A program made the position numbers and the translations under genes. Under the pieces are notes generated by a model, which was not told the DNA's origin, made no database searches, and saw nothing but the letters and a program-made list of their open reading frames with translations. Positions 3,510 through 9,836 of a stretch of DNA of 30,211 bases are shown here, piece after piece. Within the stretch, counting starts at the first letter, position 1; the number at the start of each line of letters is the position of its first letter. This DNA is from a virus (taxonomy: Duplodnaviria > Heunggongvirae > Uroviricota > Caudoviricetes), in the IMG/VR virus record IMGVR_UViG_2693429554_000017. One strand, 5' to 3'.

Positions 3510-5775
3510 AGCCTCCGGGCGTTTTGTCCCTCCGTCAGCATTTGCCGCAGGCACCGGTAAGATGTTTACCGGTGCTTATGCATGGAACGCGCCACGCGAG
3601 GCCCTCGGGCGCGAAAGACCCCTTACACGTGACGAGATGCGTCAGGTGCAAGGTGTTTTATCCACGATTAACCGCCTGCCTTACTTTTTGCGCTCGCTGT
3701 TTACTTCACGCTATGACTACATCCGGCGCAATAAAAGCCCGGTGCACGGGTTTTATTTCCTCACATCCACTTTTCAGCGTCGTTTATGGCCGCGCATTGA
3801 GCGTGTGAATCAGCGCCATGAAATGAACACCGACGCGTCGTTACTGTTTCTGGCAGAGCGTGACCACTATGCGCGCCTGCCGGGAATGAATGACAAGGAG
3901 CTGAAAAAGTTTGCTGCCCGTATCTCATCGCAGCTTTTCATGATGTATGAGGAACTCAGCGATGCCTGGGTGGATGCGCATGGCGAAAAAGAATCGCTGT
4001 TTACGGATGAGGCGCAGGCTCACCTCTATGGTCATGTTGCTGGCGCTGCACGTGCTTTCAATATTTCCCCTCTCTACTGGAAAAAATACCGTAAAGGGCT
4101 GATGACCACGAGGCAGGCATATTCTGCCATTGCCCGTCTGTTTAACGATGAGTGGTGGACTCATCAGCTTAAAGGCCAGCGTATGCGCTGGCATGAAGCG
4201 TTAATGATAGCTGTCGGGGAGGTCAATAAAGACCGTTCTCCTTATGCCAGTAAACACGCCATTCGTGATGTGCGTGCGCGCCGCCAGGCAAATCTGGAAT
4301 TTCTTAAATCGTGTGACCTTGAAAACAGGGAAACCGGCGAGCGCATCGACCTTATCAGTAAGGCGATGGGCAGTATTTCTAATCCTGAAATTCGCCGGAT
4401 GGAGCTGATGAACACCATTGCCGGTATTGAGCGTTACGCCGCCGCAGAGGGTGATGTGGGGATGTTTATCACGCTGACCGCGCCGTCAAAGTATCACCCG
4501 ACTCGTCAGGTCAGAAAAGGCGAAAGTAAAACCGTTCAGCTTAATCACGGCTGGAACGATGAGGTATTTAATCCAAAGGATGCGCAGCGTTATCTCTGCC
4601 GCATCTGGAGCCTGATGCGCACGGCATTCAAGGATAATGATTTACAGGTCTACGGTTTGCGTGTCGTCGAGCCACACCACGACGGAACGCCGCACTGGCA
4701 TATGATGCTTTTTTGTAATCCACGCCAGCGTAACCAGATTATCGAAATCATGCGTCGCTATGCGCTCAAAGAGGATGGTGACGAAAGAGGAGCCGCGCGA
4801 AACCGTTTTCAGGCAAAGCACCTTAACCGGGGCGGTGCTGCGGGATATATCGCGAAATACATTTCAAAAAATATCGACGGCTATGCACTGGATGGTCAGC
4901 TCGATAACGATACCGGTAAGCCGCTTAAAGATACTGCCGCGGCTGTTACCGCATGGGCGTCAACGTGGCGCATCCCGCAATTTAAAACGGTTGGACTGCC
5001 GACAATGGGGGCTTACCGTGAACTACGCAAATTGCCTCGCGGCGTCAGTATTGCTGATGAGTTTGACGAACGCGTCGAGGCTGCTCGCGCTGCCGCAGAC
5101 AGTGGTGATTTTGCGTTGTATATCAGCGCGCAGGGTGGGGCAAATGTCCCGCGCGATTGTCAGACTGTCAGGGTTGCCCGTAGCCCGTCGGATGACGTTA
5201 ACGAGTACGAGGAAGAAGTCGAGAGAGTGGTCGGCATTTACGCGCCGCATCTCGGCGCGCGTCATATTCATATCACCAGAACGACGGACTGGTGCATTGT
5301 GCCGAAAGTTCCGGTCGTTGAGCCTTTGACTTTAAAAAGCGGCATCGCCGCGCCTCGGAGTCCTGTCAATAACTGTGGAAAGCTCACCGGTGGTGATACT
5401 TCGTTACTGGCTCCCACACCTTCTGAGCACGCCGCAGCAGTGCTTAATCTGGTTGATGACGGTGTTATTGAATGGAATGAACCGGAGGTCGTGAGGGCGC
5501 TCAGGGGCGCATTAAAACACGACCTGCGAACGCCAAACCGTCAGCAAAGAAACGGAAGCCCGTTAAAACCACATGAAATTGCACCATCGGCCAGACTGAC
5601 CCGGTCGGAAAGAATGCAAATTACCCGTATCCGCGTTGACCTTGCTCAGAACGGTATCAGGCCGCAGCGATGGGAGCTTGAGGCGCTGGCGCGTGGCGCG
5701 ACCGTAAATTATGACGGGAAAAAATTCACGTATCCGGTCGCTGATGAGTGGCCGGGGTTCTCGTTACCCATTTGA
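3499..5775 (+). CDS. A: rolling-circle replication initiator endonuclease A
   Basis: ORF 3457..5775; preferred start ATG 3499 (MAVKASGRF...), giving about 758 aa, close to P2 gpA as I recall. Contains HWHMMLF and a tyrosine-rich segment typical of phage Rep endonucleases. Confidence 0.9.
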   Translation: MAVKASGRFVPPSAFAAGTGKMFTGAYAWNAPREALGRERPLTRDEMRQVQGVLSTINRLPYFLRSLFTSRYDYIRRNKSPVHGFYFLTSTFQRRLWPRIERVNQRHEMNTDASLLFLAERDHYARLPGMNDKELKKFAARISSQLFMMYEELSDAWVDAHGEKESLFTDEAQAHLYGHVAGAARAFNISPLYWKKYRKGLMTTRQAYSAIARLFNDEWWTHQLKGQRMRWHEALMIAVGEVNKDRSPYASKHAIRDVRARRQANLEFLKSCDLENRETGERIDLISKAMGSISNPEIRRMELMNTIAGIERYAAAEGDVGMFITLTAPSKYHPTRQVRKGESKTVQLNHGWNDEVFNPKDAQRYLCRIWSLMRTAFKDNDLQVYGLRVVEPHHDGTPHWHMMLFCNPRQRNQIIEIMRRYALKEDGDERGAARNRFQAKHLNRGGAAGYIAKYISKNIDGYALDGQLDNDTGKPLKDTAAAVTAWASTWRIPQFKTVGLPTMGAYRELRKLPRGVSIADEFDERVEAARAAADSGDFALYISAQGGANVPRDCQTVRVARSPSDDVNEYEEEVERVVGIYAPHLGARHIHITRTTDWCIVPKVPVVEPLTLKSGIAAPRSPVNNCGKLTGGDTSLLAPTPSEHAAAVLNLVDDGVIEWNEPEVVRALRGALKHDLRTPNRQQRNGSPLKPHEIAPSARLTRSERMQITRIRVDLAQNGIRPQRWELEALARGATVNYDGKKFTYPVADEWPGFSLPI

Positions 5776-6033
5776 GTAAAAACACAACGTAATTTGATAT
5801 GGCATTGAATGGCTTATGCGGAGCAGTTATGGGGCAGCAGAAGGTCAATAGCATGCTGAATTAGAAGGCTAAATGCTATTGAGTGACTAGCATGTCGGTA
5901 AGGACAGCCGTTTGATCCGGGTCATAAAAGGCCATCCATTTAGTCTAATAAAATCATTGCGGGTAACCTTATGTCGACGCATAATTCGTCTTGAGCGAAG
6001 TCTTGTCAGTCTTTCATCGTATTGATGATGGGC

Positions 6034-6066
6034 GCAAAAAAACCACCCTGGCAGGTGGTTTTTTTG
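6034..6066. terminator. bidirectional rho-independent terminator
   Basis: AAAAAAACCACC-CTGGCA-GGTGGTTTTTTT: 12-bp stem, 6-nt loop, with A-run on one side and T-run on the other. Lies between the end of A (+) and the 37-aa ORF (-). Confidence 0.75.
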
Positions 6067-6077
6067 TTTGAAGCATA

Positions 6078-6191
6078 TTAAAGCATAATGCTGACATTGA
6101 TATTACTGACGTTTACTGACAAACCACTCGGACTACCGTTTGGATAGCCAAAGAGGGCCAGAACGAGAATGCAGTAATAGCATTTCTTCAT
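6078..6191 (-). CDS. 37-aa hydrophobic small protein of unknown function
   Basis: ATG at 6191-6189 preceded by AGGAGG with 5-nt spacing. Product MKKCYYCILVLALFGYPNGSPSGLSVNVSNINVSIML; stop at 6078, followed directly by the bidirectional terminator. It is the C-terminal part of the 97-aa track ORF 6078..6371, whose upstream part has no SD. Confidence 0.3.
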   Translation of the reverse strand: MKKCYYCILVLALFGYPNGSPSGLSVNVSNINVSIML

Positions 6192-6667
6192 ATTGCCTCC
6201 TGTAAGTAGAGGGCAACTTCCACCGGTATATGCGCTTCTTAGGTGGAATGACTTTTGAGCGAAGTCTTGCCCTGAAATAATGCTCTGTTTAAACGCAAAG
6301 TGATCTGGCATATCACCGAACAGAGAGCCTGAACAACACAACATATAGTATGTCGTTGTTTCTGGTTGCATTTTATGTTGTGTAATACTGGTTTTGCATC
6401 AAGGATGTTTGAGCTTTTTTTGATATAGCTCAAAGTAAAAAGCAGAGACTACGGATGATAAGGTCTTGAAAGCAATGTAAATTTTTTAAAGTTGCCAATT
6501 GCTTAAAAATGTACAGTTGCGGTATGGCGTACTTAAAAAGCTATGCATGCAACAAGTGAATGTTTTTGCATGCGTTGGGGATGTCCGTTCAGGCTGCGTG
6601 CGGTCAGGACTGGTGCGGATCCATAGTATCTATGCAACTGCATTAAAACCGACCCATGAAGCGGGCG

Positions 6668-6686
6668 GGCGAGGCGGGGAAAGCAC
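6668..6686. other. cos cohesive-end sequence
   Basis: GGCGAGGCGGGGAAAGCAC matches the 19-nt P2 cohesive end as I recall it. Lies in a GC-rich non-coding stretch just before Q, where P2 cos is. Confidence 0.6.
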
Positions 6687-6829
6687 TGCGCGCTGGCGGT
6701 GGTGCTGATTTTATTTTTTCAGCGTCTGAGCGCGTCGTGATAGCGTTTAGATTGTGCGCCGGGGCGTTGGTTTGCCTGCGGGCTGTTTTGTGCGGTGGTG
6801 AGCGTGTGAGGGCGTGATGACGGGGGTGT

Positions 6830-6851
6830 AAAAAAGCCGCCCGCAGGCGGC
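6830..6851 (-). terminator. rho-independent terminator after Q
   Basis: On the minus strand GCCGCC-TGCG-GGCGGC followed by TTTTTT, immediately after the Q stop codon. Confidence 0.6.
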
Positions 6852-6856
6852 GATGT

Positions 6857-7891
6857 TCAGCCGTTGTCAGTGTCCAGTGAGTAGTTTTTAAAGCGGATGA
6901 CCTCCTGACCGAGCCAGCCGTTTATTTCCCGAATCCTGTCCTGTAACGGGATAAGCTCATTGCGGACAAAGACCTTTGACACTTTCTCAATATCACCCAG
7001 CGACCCGACGTTCTCCGGCTTGCCGCCCATCAACTGAAAGGGGATGCGGTGCGCGTCAAGCAGGTCAGCGGCGCTGGCTTTTTTGATATTAAAAAAATCG
7101 TCCTTCGTTGCCACTTCACTGAGCGGGATAATTTTAATGCCGTCGGCTTTTCCCTGTGGTGCATAGAGAAACAGGTTTTTAAAGTTGTTGCGGCCTTTCG
7201 ACTTAACCATGTTTTCGCGAAGCGTTTCGATATCGTTGCGGTCCTGCACGGCATCGGTGACGTACATGATGTATCCGGCATGTGCGCCATTTTCGTAATA
7301 CTTGCGGCGGAACAGCGTGGCCGACTCATTCAGCCAGGCAGAATTAAGGGCGCTCAGATATTCCGGCAGGCCGTACAACTCCTGATTGATATCCGGCTCC
7401 AGCAGGTGAAACACGGAGCCGGGCGTGAAGGCTGTCGGCTCGTTGAAGGACGGCACCCACCAGTAAACATCCTCCTCCACGCCACGGCGGGTATATTTTG
7501 CCGGTGAGGTTTCCAGTCTGATGACCTTACCGGTGGTGCTGTAACGCTTTTCCAGAAACGCATTACCGAACACCAGAAAATCCAGCACAAAGCGGCTGAA
7601 ATCCTGCTGGGAAAGCCACGGATGCGGAATAAACGTTGAAGCCAGAATATTGCGTTTAACGTAAATCGGCGAGCTGTGATGCACGGCAGCACGCAGGCTT
7701 TTTGCCAGACCGGTAAAGCTGACCGGTGGCTCATACCATCTGCCGTTACTGATGCACTCGACGTAATCCAGAATGTCACGGCGGTCGAGTACCGGCACCG
7801 GCTCGCCAAAGGTGAATGCTTCCATTTTCGGGGCGCTGGCGGTGATTGTTTTTGCCGCAGGTTGCGGTGTTTTCCCTTTTTTCTTGCTCAT
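6857..7891 (-). CDS. Q: portal protein
   Basis: 344-aa ORF, same length as P2 gpQ as I recall; first gene after cos, leftward, adjacent to P. Confidence 0.9.
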   Translation of the reverse strand: MSKKKGKTPQPAAKTITASAPKMEAFTFGEPVPVLDRRDILDYVECISNGRWYEPPVSFTGLAKSLRAAVHHSSPIYVKRNILASTFIPHPWLSQQDFSRFVLDFLVFGNAFLEKRYSTTGKVIRLETSPAKYTRRGVEEDVYWWVPSFNEPTAFTPGSVFHLLEPDINQELYGLPEYLSALNSAWLNESATLFRRKYYENGAHAGYIMYVTDAVQDRNDIETLRENMVKSKGRNNFKNLFLYAPQGKADGIKIIPLSEVATKDDFFNIKKASAADLLDAHRIPFQLMGGKPENVGSLGDIEKVSKVFVRNELIPLQDRIREINGWLGQEVIRFKNYSLDTDNG

Positions 7892-9663
7892 CAGTAAAAC
7901 TCCAGAATGGTGGATGTCAGCGGGGTGCTGATACCGGCGGTGAGTGGCTCATTTAACAGGGCGTGCATGGTCGCCCAGGCGAGGTCGGCGTGGCTGGCTT
8001 CCTCGCTGCGGCTGGCCTCATAGGTGGCGCTGCGTCCGCTGCTGGTCATGGTCTTGCGGATAGCCATAAACGAGCTGGTGATGTCGGTGGCGCTGACGTC
8101 ATATTCCAGACAGCCACGGCGGATAACGTCTTTTGCCTTGAGCACCATTGCGGTTTTCATTTCCGGCGTGTAGCGGATATCGCGCGCGGCGGGATAGAAC
8201 GAGCGCACGAGCTGGAACACACCGACACCGAGGCCGGTGGCATCAATCCCGATGTATTCAACGTTATATTTTTCGGTGAGTTTGCGGATGGATTCCGCCT
8301 GAGTGGCAAAGTCCATGCCTTTCCACTGGTGACGCTCAAGTATCCTGAATTTGCCACCGGCCACCACCGGCGGTGCCAGTACCACGCATCCGGCGCTGTC
8401 GCCACGGTGTGACGGGTCGTAACCAATCCATACCGGGCGGGAACCGAACGGATTTGCGGCAAAGGGTGCATAGTCTTCCCATTCTTCCAGCGTGTCGACC
8501 ATGCAGCGTTGCAGCTCCTCGAACGGGAACACCGACGCCTTGTCGTCAACAAATTCACACATGAACAGGTTTTTAAAATCGTCGGCGCTGTTTTCGCGTT
8601 TAAGCTGCTCAATGTCGAACAATGTGCAGCCGCCTTTCAGGGCGTCCTCAATGGTGACAATCTGCCGCCACTGGCCGTCCGCACAGAGAAGCCCGCCGGC
8701 AAGGGCGTTATGACTGACGTCGATTTCCACGCGTTCGGCGGCGCTGGCGCGTCCCCGGTTAAACAGCTCACCCGACCAGAACGGGTAGGCGTCGTGCGCC
8801 AGCGTGGACGGAGTGGAGAAATAGGTCGAGCGCAGGTGACTCTGTGAGGCCATACCTGATGCCACCTTACGCAGTACCTGAAAATTCGGGATCCAGAAAA
8901 TCTCGTCGACGTACAGGTCGCCGTTATGGCTCTGCGCGGTGTTGGAGTTGGTGCCGAGAAAAATCAGTTTTGCGCCGTTATTGCCCAGGACAATCGGGTC
9001 ACCGGTCAGGTCAACGTCAACCAGACGGGCAAAGGCGATGATGTATTCGCGGAACACATACGCCTGCGTTTTACTGGCCGACAGAAAAATCTGGTTATGA
9101 CCGGTTTTCAGGGCGCGCAGCAGCGCCTCGCGGGAAAAATAAAACGTTGCGCCAATCTGGCGGGATTTCAGGATATCGCGGATGCGGTGCTCAAGCCCGG
9201 CGCGATACCAGTGCAACTGATAGTCGAAAGACTGCTCAAAGAAAATCTGCTCCAGCTTTTCGATGGCCTCGTCACTGAAAAAATTCTTTTTCGGTTTACG
9301 ACGCCCACCTTTGTTGCGGTTAGCGACGTTCGGATTAAGGTCTGCTTCGTTGCCGGTCTGACTGTAGCGGTTGACCCGTGCCAGTCGTTCAATCTGGCGT
9401 CCCAGCAGGTCAATTTCCTTGAAGTCACCGCCGGTTTTCTGCGGTTTGATGATGAGCTGGGTCAGTCGCGCTTCCAGACTCATTTCGACACGGCTGATGG
9501 GGGCAACACTGTCCCAGCCGTCGCGCTGTTTCCAGCTCTGCACCGTCGGGCGTTTCATCTGCAACATGGCGGCAATCTGCGGCACGGAAAATCCCTGCCA
9601 GTACAGCAGCGCCGCCTGACGACGCGGGTCGTGTAAAAGAGTGGTGTCTGTGGTGATGGTCAT
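7891..9663 (-). CDS. P: terminase large (ATPase) subunit
   Basis: ORF 7891..9693; preferred start ATG 9663-9661 (MTITTDTT...) with GAGG upstream. About 590 aa. Divergent from O. Confidence 0.9.
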   Translation of the reverse strand: MTITTDTTLLHDPRRQAALLYWQGFSVPQIAAMLQMKRPTVQSWKQRDGWDSVAPISRVEMSLEARLTQLIIKPQKTGGDFKEIDLLGRQIERLARVNRYSQTGNEADLNPNVANRNKGGRRKPKKNFFSDEAIEKLEQIFFEQSFDYQLHWYRAGLEHRIRDILKSRQIGATFYFSREALLRALKTGHNQIFLSASKTQAYVFREYIIAFARLVDVDLTGDPIVLGNNGAKLIFLGTNSNTAQSHNGDLYVDEIFWIPNFQVLRKVASGMASQSHLRSTYFSTPSTLAHDAYPFWSGELFNRGRASAAERVEIDVSHNALAGGLLCADGQWRQIVTIEDALKGGCTLFDIEQLKRENSADDFKNLFMCEFVDDKASVFPFEELQRCMVDTLEEWEDYAPFAANPFGSRPVWIGYDPSHRGDSAGCVVLAPPVVAGGKFRILERHQWKGMDFATQAESIRKLTEKYNVEYIGIDATGLGVGVFQLVRSFYPAARDIRYTPEMKTAMVLKAKDVIRRGCLEYDVSATDITSSFMAIRKTMTSSGRSATYEASRSEEASHADLAWATMHALLNEPLTAGISTPLTSTILEFY

Positions 9664-9836
9664 GAATACCTCGCCGTGATGAATACACGGCAAGGCTACT
9701 GAGTCGCGCCCCGCGATTCGCTAAGGTGCTGTTGTGTCAGTGATAAGCCATCCGGGACTGATGGCGGAGGATGCGCATCGTCGGGAAACTGATGCCGACA
9801 TGTGACTCCTCTAATCACTATTCAGGACTCCTGACA

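Follow-up and report, generated by a model that had tools for sequence, protein, structure and literature searches.

A conserved 37-codon gene and a predicted convergent antisense RNA as a candidate type I toxin-antitoxin-like cassette in the defence hotspot of a P2-like prophage

A short open reading frame (ORF) of 37 codons, located on the minus strand at positions 6078-6191 of the virus record IMGVR_UViG_2693429554_000017, was analyzed together with its surroundings; "the window" hereafter means the whole stretch of 30,211 nucleotides (nt), a P2-like prophage, in whose numbering all positions are given. Comparison with relatives indicated that this ORF is almost certainly a conserved protein-coding gene, and that it belongs to a mobile cassette in which a small RNA, whose existence we regard as likely, would be transcribed convergently from the opposite strand. 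The full interpretation, that the cassette is a type I toxin-antitoxin pair, is one that we hold with moderate confidence from sequence comparison. A first-pass annotation of the window had likened the product to small membrane toxins or abortive-infection peptides. This guess was partly strengthened, in that a type I layout was found around the ORF: a predicted antisense RNA, a shared terminator, a repeat complementarity of 15-18 bp, a sequestered Shine-Dalgarno (SD) sequence, and carriage by plasmids and prophages. The membrane-toxin part of the guess is weighed below.

The ATG of the gene lies at 6191 and its TAA stop codon at 6080-6078 on the minus strand, and translation confirmed the 37-aa product already reported, MKKCYYCILVLALFGYPNGSPSGLSVNVSNINVSIML. 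The SD sequence, AGGAGG (6196-6201, minus strand), was also present as described, with a spacer to the ATG of 4 nt (CAAT) instead of 5 nt, and its GGAGG core was retained in relatives (GGTGG in L018). In the window, no stop codon interrupts the frame upstream as far as an ATG at 6371, so that a longer ORF of 97 aa (6078-6371) can be read; this extended ORF was rejected because relatives have in-frame stops 5-20 codons before the ATG of the 37-codon gene. Since the conserved blocks upstream of this ATG fall in different reading frames in different lineages, the region was regarded as a non-coding 5' untranslated region (UTR).

Relatives were gathered by pattern and peptide scans of viral and metagenome contigs, plasmid BLAST, and exhaustive HMMER searches, which brought in increasingly distant copies. 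All of the 16 distinct nucleotide versions obtained, from five kinds of mobile element, had 37 codons and a stop codon, and a further member from the HMMER search (P0006) had 38 codons. The length of the frame was constant despite nucleotide divergence of up to 35%, changes in length being confined to the outside of the ORF (the spacer from the stop codon to the terminator was 12, 16, or 17 nt), and the remaining five frames were all closed in at least 14 of the 16 versions. Variable sites by codon position numbered 19/11/27 in these versions, a bias toward the third position, and the pairwise ratio of nonsynonymous to synonymous substitution rates (dN/dS) between lineages was 0.13-0.39. Amino acid replacements were conservative (K/R, L/I/V, and F/L), and at codon 34 a change from AGC to TCT kept Ser. 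These results pointed to selection at the protein level, and thus to a real gene behind the translational signal that had been noticed initially; the reading frame was kept in relatives without frame-breaking indels, which was the check named by the first-pass annotation. In one natural variant, P0002 (from a genome of 4.9 Mb), the stop codon is missing and the frame continues through the terminator, giving a product of 68 aa; L13S is additionally found in its hydrophobic core, and this copy may be inactivated.

A search for a convergent antisense RNA had also been proposed, and a strong candidate of ~74 nt was predicted on the plus strand at 5992-6065. This antitoxin-like small RNA would begin with a complementary segment (5992-6008), followed by a middle hairpin (6009-6033) and the hairpin of the terminator. 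Its predicted sigma-70 promoter (5957-5985, plus strand) is composed of the -35 element TTGCGG (5957-5962), a 17-nt spacer, and the -10 element CATAAT (5980-5985), with a start at ~5992. In the P2, N15-like, plasmid, and filamentous-phage lineages, the two elements were TTGCG[GA] and an invariant CATAAT, separated by a spacer constant at 17 nt and variable in sequence, and the promoter was called because of this cross-lineage conservation and its place just upstream of the complementary segment. The predicted RNA was 70-75 nt long across lineages, and three helices were obtained with RNAalifold. The middle helix differed in sequence in each lineage with its pairing kept: 5 of 7 pairs were changed on both sides and 91.7% of cells were paired, with a covariation score (over ~6 independent lineages) of 0.217, compared with 0.139 ± 0.015 in shuffles (reached in 0 of 500) and at most 0.136 in slid controls. 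Two further lineages bring additional, different middle stems. Many G·U pairs of the fold suit only the plus strand, and the folding z-score was -3.9. On the minus strand (6009-5981), a leftward consensus-like promoter, CTGACA-17-AATTAT, overlaps the small-RNA promoter and the 5' complementary segment, and was the sole match of the consensus promoter scan.

The ORF had been described as ending directly at a bidirectional hairpin, and a bidirectional intrinsic terminator was indeed found 12 nt past the stop codon (6078-6080), at 6036-6065 on both strands: AAAAAAACCACC-CTGGCA-GGTGGTTTTTTT, in which a stem of 12 bp closes the CTGGCA loop and each strand has a run of 7 T. It was invariant across lineages save for one loop base in L073 and one-base changes in the length of the A/T runs in L033, L074, and L076. 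Since the two predicted transcripts share this terminator, their 3' hairpins would be mutually complementary (30-nt overlap). The loop on the small-RNA strand (6047-6052), CUGGCA, holds a YUNR-type motif (CUGG) in all lineages (CUGGCC in L073); loop motifs of this type occur in many antisense RNA systems.

A direct repeat provides a further complementarity. The 15-mer TTGAGCGAAGTCTTG is present at 5991-6005 (copy 1; plus strand), at the 5' end of the predicted small RNA, and again at 6255-6269 (copy 2; the small-RNA target is 6255-6271 on the minus, or mRNA, strand), ~55 nt upstream of the SD sequence on the predicted mRNA. The repeat as a 16-mer was found twice in the window at one mismatch or fewer, where 0.25 matches would be expected by chance even at three mismatches or fewer, and it was conserved in every lineage. 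As one copy would be transcribed rightward and the other leftward, the small RNA would be complementary over its first 15-18 nt to the 5' UTR of the ORF mRNA: 15-18 contiguous base pairs were obtained in each lineage, with the duplex beginning at the predicted small-RNA +1. Internal differences between copies were all compatible with pairing (U·G in the window, A-U to G·U in L018, and G-C to G·U in L101), and one duplex position was Watson-Crick covariant (C-G in plasmids, U·G in the window, and U-A in L100). On the plus strand, copy 2 also opens with TTGAGC, followed after 15 nt by AATAAT (6255-6281), a promoter-like site facing the cargo slot described below; it had the second-best plus-strand scan score, which was not above shuffles.

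The predicted promoter of the small-protein mRNA (6364-6402, minus strand) consists of TTGATGCAAA (6393-6402, including the -35 element TGCAAA), a 17-nt spacer, and the -10 element TAAAAT (6370-6375), with a start at ~6363. The hexamers were conserved (TA[AG]AAT), and the spacer was constant in length and variable in sequence. Promoter prediction from sequence alone was rejected, since a consensus scan and a position-weight-matrix scan both performed no better than on shuffles, and the promoter calls therefore lean on cross-lineage conservation. The predicted 5' UTR of 172 nt (6192-6363, minus strand) contains hairpin B (6218-6248), the small-RNA target, and stem-loop A (6283-6325); in the RNAalifold consensus, compensatory pairs were found in hairpin B and in stem-loop A, the latter being strongly conserved. 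The 3' part of the SD sequence would pair with an upstream GCC(C) at 6209-6216, in which a U-A pair covaries to C-G, and the SD sequence was predicted to be mostly paired in all lineages (unpaired probability of 0.03-0.22). A fold-back of the mRNA 3' end onto the SD sequence, seen in the minimum-energy fold of the window, was dropped because the spacer after the stop codon was not conserved. No LexA box or P2 Ogr-type late promoter was seen by eye upstream of the ORF. An inverted repeat, TTTGAGCT-N12-AGCTCAAA, lies upstream of the predicted mRNA promoter at 6408-6435; it was found only in the P2 lineage, and not in the N15-like, plasmid, or filamentous-phage copies.

The consensus of the peptide family was M-[KN]-[KR]-x-x-x-C-I-L-V-L-[AT]-L-F-G-Y-P-x-G-S-[QP]-S-G-[WL]-S-V-x-V-S-[NH]-I-x-V-x-I-x-[LM]. 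A basic N-terminus is followed by a hydrophobic stretch of 11-13 residues and then by a conserved GYPxGS(Q/P)SG turn, and the C-terminal strand alternates polar and hydrophobic residues and always ends in hydrophobic-x-hydrophobic. By inspection, the N-terminal half may be a Sec-type signal, as its basic n-region precedes a hydrophobic core of 11 residues and GYP, and the residues at S20 and S22 are small.

These features can be combined into the following scheme. An mRNA of ~330 nt would be made leftward from ~6363, with a long structured 5' UTR, a sequestered SD sequence, and the 37-codon gene, whose product would be a small Sec-signal-like or membrane-targeted peptide. The ~74-nt RNA would be made rightward from ~5992. 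Both transcripts would converge on the single bidirectional terminator and thereby acquire complementary 3' hairpins, and both would cross the direct repeat in opposite directions, so that the 5' end of the small RNA could pair ~55 nt upstream of the SD sequence. The small RNA would prevent synthesis of the peptide by blocking ribosome loading and/or by causing cleavage; blocking of a standby site, cleavage, and kissing via the terminator loops are candidate modes of repression. The peptide would be harmful in excess, and the cassette would stabilize its carrier (a plasmid, linear plasmid-prophage, or prophage) or kill cells in which transcription has been shut off. We infer the production of both RNAs, the repression, the location of the peptide, and its toxicity from the sequence.

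The conserved unit was ~550 bp long (~5935-6490). Its right-hand end is a conserved region upstream of the mRNA promoter (6403-6490; ..GATGTTT..TTTTaTTGA..CAAaGTAAAAA..), which was 53-83% identical in N15-like phage and alignable also in plasmids and filamentous phages, with similarity stopping at ~6490. In the window, the replication gene A (plus strand) ends at 5775, and the portal gene Q (6857-7891) and terminase gene P (7891-9693) are on the minus strand; between the stop codon of A and the end of Q there are 1081 bp (5776-6856), and not ~0.9 kb as estimated initially. The slot between gene A and cos/Q is a P2 defence hotspot (PMC9122126), and P2 tin/old occupies the same slot between A and cos/Q as the cassette of the window, to which it has no homology. 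In P2-like prophages, the cassette directly follows gene A and is succeeded by variable plus-strand cargo: ImmA and a hypothetical protein, an AAA ATPase and a hypothetical protein, or a SIR2 protein. Both of the points at which relatives carry cargo (~6537 and ~6693-6713) were empty in the window. At the former (6533-6541), relatives have ImmA and a hypothetical protein inserted at ~6537, and an 85-nt filler is found there in L005-L007; at the latter, the cargo of relatives is an AAA ATPase with a hypothetical protein, an ORF of 1002 nt, or a gene for SIR2. For the slot, previously called that of tin and old, a more fitting description is an empty P2 defence hotspot in which a conserved leader cassette is retained.

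Outside the window, the 351 bp around the ORF were found in 150 of 5426 complete E. coli genomes (about 3%, in P2-like prophages), in two identity classes. In an N15-like telomere phage, the cassette is flanked by repA, which encodes a Toprim replication protein of 1383 aa, and by the protelomerase gene, and in filamentous prophages it adjoins the genes for secretin and Zot. It was also found in 426 plasmids (395 from Klebsiella; 352 predicted to be conjugative), in varying contexts. In the Klebsiella plasmid pGN-2 (L072; 1-3370 and 3785-4702), the cassette adjoins a gene set resembling a cyclic oligonucleotide-based antiphage signaling system (CBASS), comprising a nucleotidyltransferase, a ThiF/E1-like protein, a Mov34/JAB protein, and a 3'-5' exonuclease, together with an IS110-like transposase ORF; in L074, it adjoins a gene for an 834-aa P-loop protein. 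The cassette may therefore be associated with defence islands outside P2 as well. The ORF had no annotation by the Prokaryotic Genome Annotation Pipeline (PGAP) in the RefSeq records listed or inspected, and among the 40 plasmid records listed, no listed gene fell on the cassette match, the PLSDB gene table being incomplete. On the other hand, precisely the 37-codon coding sequence is annotated in a deposited Salmonella phage, MET_P1_103_31.

Several observations weigh against the toxin-antitoxin interpretation. Taken alone, neither promoter was significant: the position-weight-matrix score of the small-RNA promoter was 8.4, not above shuffles, and that of the mRNA promoter was 7.1. The covariation is based on only about 5-6 independent lineages. 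Formed ~55 nt from the SD sequence, the duplex would not itself cover the ribosome-binding site, and a structural switch, in which binding of the small RNA frees the anti-SD segment to close the SD sequence, was not supported by folding, since the accessibility of the SD sequence was low with or without a blocked target. It is also conceivable that the two repeat copies serve as protein-binding sites. For a membrane helix that forms pores, a hydrophobic stretch of 11-13 residues would be short, and since the C-terminal half of the peptide is polar as well, it may not be a classical membrane toxin. Moreover, addiction is less obviously useful in P2-like prophages, because they are integrated into the chromosome.

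Two rival explanations place the function of the cassette elsewhere than in the encoded peptide. The first-pass annotation had allowed for an incidental ORF within a protein-binding or small-RNA element, on account of tandem TACTGAC copies, which were located as given at 6104-6110 and 6114-6120; the shortness of the ORF also fits a chance open frame, as does the rarity with which gene callers predict the product (3 matches in a set of 5.8 billion protein clusters and 7 in one of 1.84 billion representatives, none of them named). The repeat was, however, not conserved, and was rejected as a binding site: its copies are lost by synonymous changes in relatives (e.g., L018 has TTGCTGAT..CTACCGAC), and they are evidently a by-product of the repeated S-V-N / V-S-N peptide motif. 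Since the frame keeps its length in sequences that diverge by up to 35% in nucleotides, with dN/dS well below 1, third-position bias, and conservative replacements, and since indels spare the ORF and every other frame is closed, the comparative data already contradict a chance frame, which we consider extremely improbable. Somewhat less remote, and still quite improbable, is the explanation that the conserved DNA is mainly a regulatory or insulating leader of the P2 defence hotspot, composed of an early-operon terminator, repeated protein-binding sites, and a cargo promoter, with the ORF and small RNA being secondary or unexpressed. The constant position in P2-like prophages between gene A and variable plus-strand cargo (ImmA, AAA ATPase, or SIR2) is in line with such a leader, as are the promoter-like TTGAGC-15-AATAAT that overlaps repeat copy 2 and the missing PGAP annotation of the ORF in the RefSeq records listed or inspected. 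However, the cassette also occurs without plus-strand cargo, the N15-like copy facing the protelomerase gene at its 3' end and the surroundings in plasmids being varied, and a role at the DNA level leaves unexplained the protein-level selection on the ORF, as well as the strand-specific G·U pairs and compensatory changes in the RNA hairpins; the differences between repeat copies were, furthermore, all compatible with pairing.

The main rival accepts both the gene and its control by the small RNA, and differs in the nature of the product, which would be an exported non-toxin. The 37-aa precursor would be exported by Sec and cleaved after GS[Q/P]S|G or left anchored, and its C-terminal β-strand would act in the periplasm or envelope, e.g., in superinfection exclusion, envelope signaling, or interaction with a carrier-encoded function, while the RNA would merely tune its level. 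The basic N-terminus, the 11-residue hydrophobic core (in a stretch of only 11-13 residues), and the helix-breaking GYP agree with this, as do the nearly invariant small residues at -3 and -1 (S20 and S22), which make a plausible signal-peptidase site, and the last 15 residues, an amphipathic strand with polar/hydrophobic alternation and a hydrophobic-x-hydrophobic C-terminus. TimP, the closest analogue, allows growth at native levels, and its function may be unrelated to toxicity (PMC7667032). In contrast, layered repression by a sequestered SD sequence, an antisense RNA, and a long structured UTR, combined with carriage by plasmids and prophages, is typical of toxic products, and no partner gene was constantly adjacent across four contexts. 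We regard an exported non-toxin as unlikely, albeit a serious contender. A more specific reading, which we consider doubtful, is that the precursor is exported by Sec and does not disrupt the membrane, cleavage at GS(Q/P)S|G freeing an amphipathic β-strand peptide of 15 residues (G[W/L]SVNVS[N/H]INV[S/N]I.L) that docks in the envelope. Such a periplasmic peptide, with an end like that of outer-membrane proteins (hydrophobic-x-hydrophobic), would act by β-augmentation or PDZ binding, and its targets would be a protease or stress sensor of the DegS/DegP/Prc type or the assembly pathway of outer-membrane proteins. If this docking were true, diverse plasmids and phages would share an RNA-gated handle on the envelope for exclusion, stress signaling, or killing.

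No prior description of the cassette was found in Rfam 15, Pfam, NCBIfam, PHROGs, PADLOC, or the searchable literature. In an E-value scan of Rfam 15, no family reached its threshold, the scores of RNAI (24.8 vs 47) and OrzO-P (21.3 vs 60) being driven by the terminator, and nothing was above threshold in Pfam, NCBIfam, PHROGs, or PADLOC. The statement that the product does not match Hok, Ldr, TisB, or Ibs was borne out by Rfam, Pfam, and NCBIfam, and no covariance-model or protein-model match was obtained to Hok/Sok, Ldr/Rdl, TisB/IstR, Ibs/Sib, ShoB/OhsC, or ZorO/OrzO. A profile scan of genome contigs (one genome per species) with the peptide alignment returned one spurious match in Zixibacteria, and this set seems to be without carriers. 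Literature searches on the peptides, repeat, and terminator, which did not extend to supplementary tables or T1TAdb, yielded nothing relevant, and the leader cassette is not mentioned in two papers on the P2 hotspot (one of them PMC9122126).

If confirmed, the toxin-antitoxin interpretation would define an unrecognized type I toxin-antitoxin-like family of Enterobacterales, in which the layout of the Gram-positive par/Fst is combined with a signal-bearing peptide like TimP. The cassette is widespread and clinically placed: its carriers include large conjugative plasmids of Klebsiella, which number in the hundreds, P2-like prophages in ~3% of complete E. coli genomes, a telomere phage, and filamentous phages. 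A constant, RNA-regulated component would also be added to the P2 defence hotspot, and a hotspot seemingly empty of cargo still carries a conserved coding cassette. The cassette would furthermore offer a compact system (two promoters, one terminator, and one 17-bp duplex) for antisense control far from the ribosome-binding site.

The cassette was compared with known type I systems. Loci of this type are recognized by a small (<60 aa) hydrophobic or membrane-directed peptide under selection, which was found here (37 aa; dN/dS of 0.13-0.39), and by an adjacent small-RNA gene complementary to the toxin mRNA, which was found in silico as the predicted 74-nt RNA. In such loci, moreover, overproduction of the peptide is toxic and the RNA counteracts it by blocking translation or by promoting decay, behavior that the cassette would be predicted to share. 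In enterobacteria, tisB/istR-1, zorO/orzO, shoB/ohsC, dinQ/agrB, and hok/sok each encode a small hydrophobic peptide whose primary transcript is inert and has a long structured 5' UTR; for all but hok/sok, a short antisense complementarity lies far upstream of the SD sequence, and hok/sok is carried by plasmids and prophages, as is the cassette. The cassette differs from the trans-encoded enterobacterial systems and hok/sok in its peptide, with a polar C-terminal half predicted as a β-strand instead of one long helix, and in its convergent arrangement with a shared terminator.

This arrangement resembles that of par/Fst (RNA I/RNA II) from the Enterococcus plasmid pAD1, in which the promoters are convergent, the terminator is bidirectional, and direct repeats and an SD-sequestering stem are present (PMC7472228). 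Like par, the cassette has complementary 3' hairpins from the shared terminator, oppositely transcribed direct repeats as a second complementarity, an intramolecular stem that sequesters the SD sequence, an ORF of ~35 codons, and carriage by plasmids, phages, and islands (PMC7472228 for par). Nevertheless, it has one repeat pair in place of DRa and DRb, and its pairing site is ~55 nt upstream of the SD sequence (target, 6255-6271; SD, 6196-6201), whereas that of par is over the initiation region. The peptide is also without the Fst/Ldr hallmarks, PXXXG(C) and a charged C-terminal tail, its C-terminus being uncharged and rich in Ser/Asn/Val/Ile, with GYPxGS. Hosts are Enterobacterales for the cassette and Firmicutes for par/Fst, and no sequence similarity was found between them.

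In type, the peptide came closer to TimP, an enterobacterial toxin of 38 aa with a signal-like N-terminus, which is repressed by pairing of the 5' end of the small RNA TimR within the 5' UTR (PMC7667032). TimP/TimR (ryfA locus, Escherichia/Salmonella) encodes peptides of 38-41 aa, compared with 37 aa for the cassette, and both have a signal-like hydrophobic N-terminus, in which MKIRCFCIVLIV resembles MKKCYYCILVLA or MNRLCLCILVLT, and an Asn/Ser-rich C-terminal half. Both mRNAs, that of the cassette being predicted, are ~300 nt long with a 5' UTR of ~145-170 nt, and in both cases the 5' UTR is where the small RNA would pair through its 5' end. On the other hand, TimR is encoded divergently upstream, whereas the small RNA of the cassette is convergent and downstream with a shared terminator, and TimP/TimR is a chromosomal core locus, whereas the cassette is on mobile elements. 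Homology to TimP was not supported: the NCBIfam model NF040796 missed six family members (TimP itself scored 86.8 bits), BLASTP gave nothing, and profile-profile alignment with hhalign gave a probability of 8.6% over 11 columns, so that the resemblance is confined to the N-terminus. Rfam RyfA (RF00126) had no match at E ≤ 5. In the timR region of E. coli K-12 (L103, 840-1300), two tandem TimR-like units (a terminator and a ccggttcgcggcctttccagcaggttg block) are located upstream of timP, only one of them being annotated as timR. Because membership was supported for neither par/Fst nor TimP/TimR, the cassette was treated as a new, unannotated family of type I toxin-antitoxin-like loci, whose layout appears closest to that of par/Fst and whose peptide type appears closest to that of TimP/TimR.

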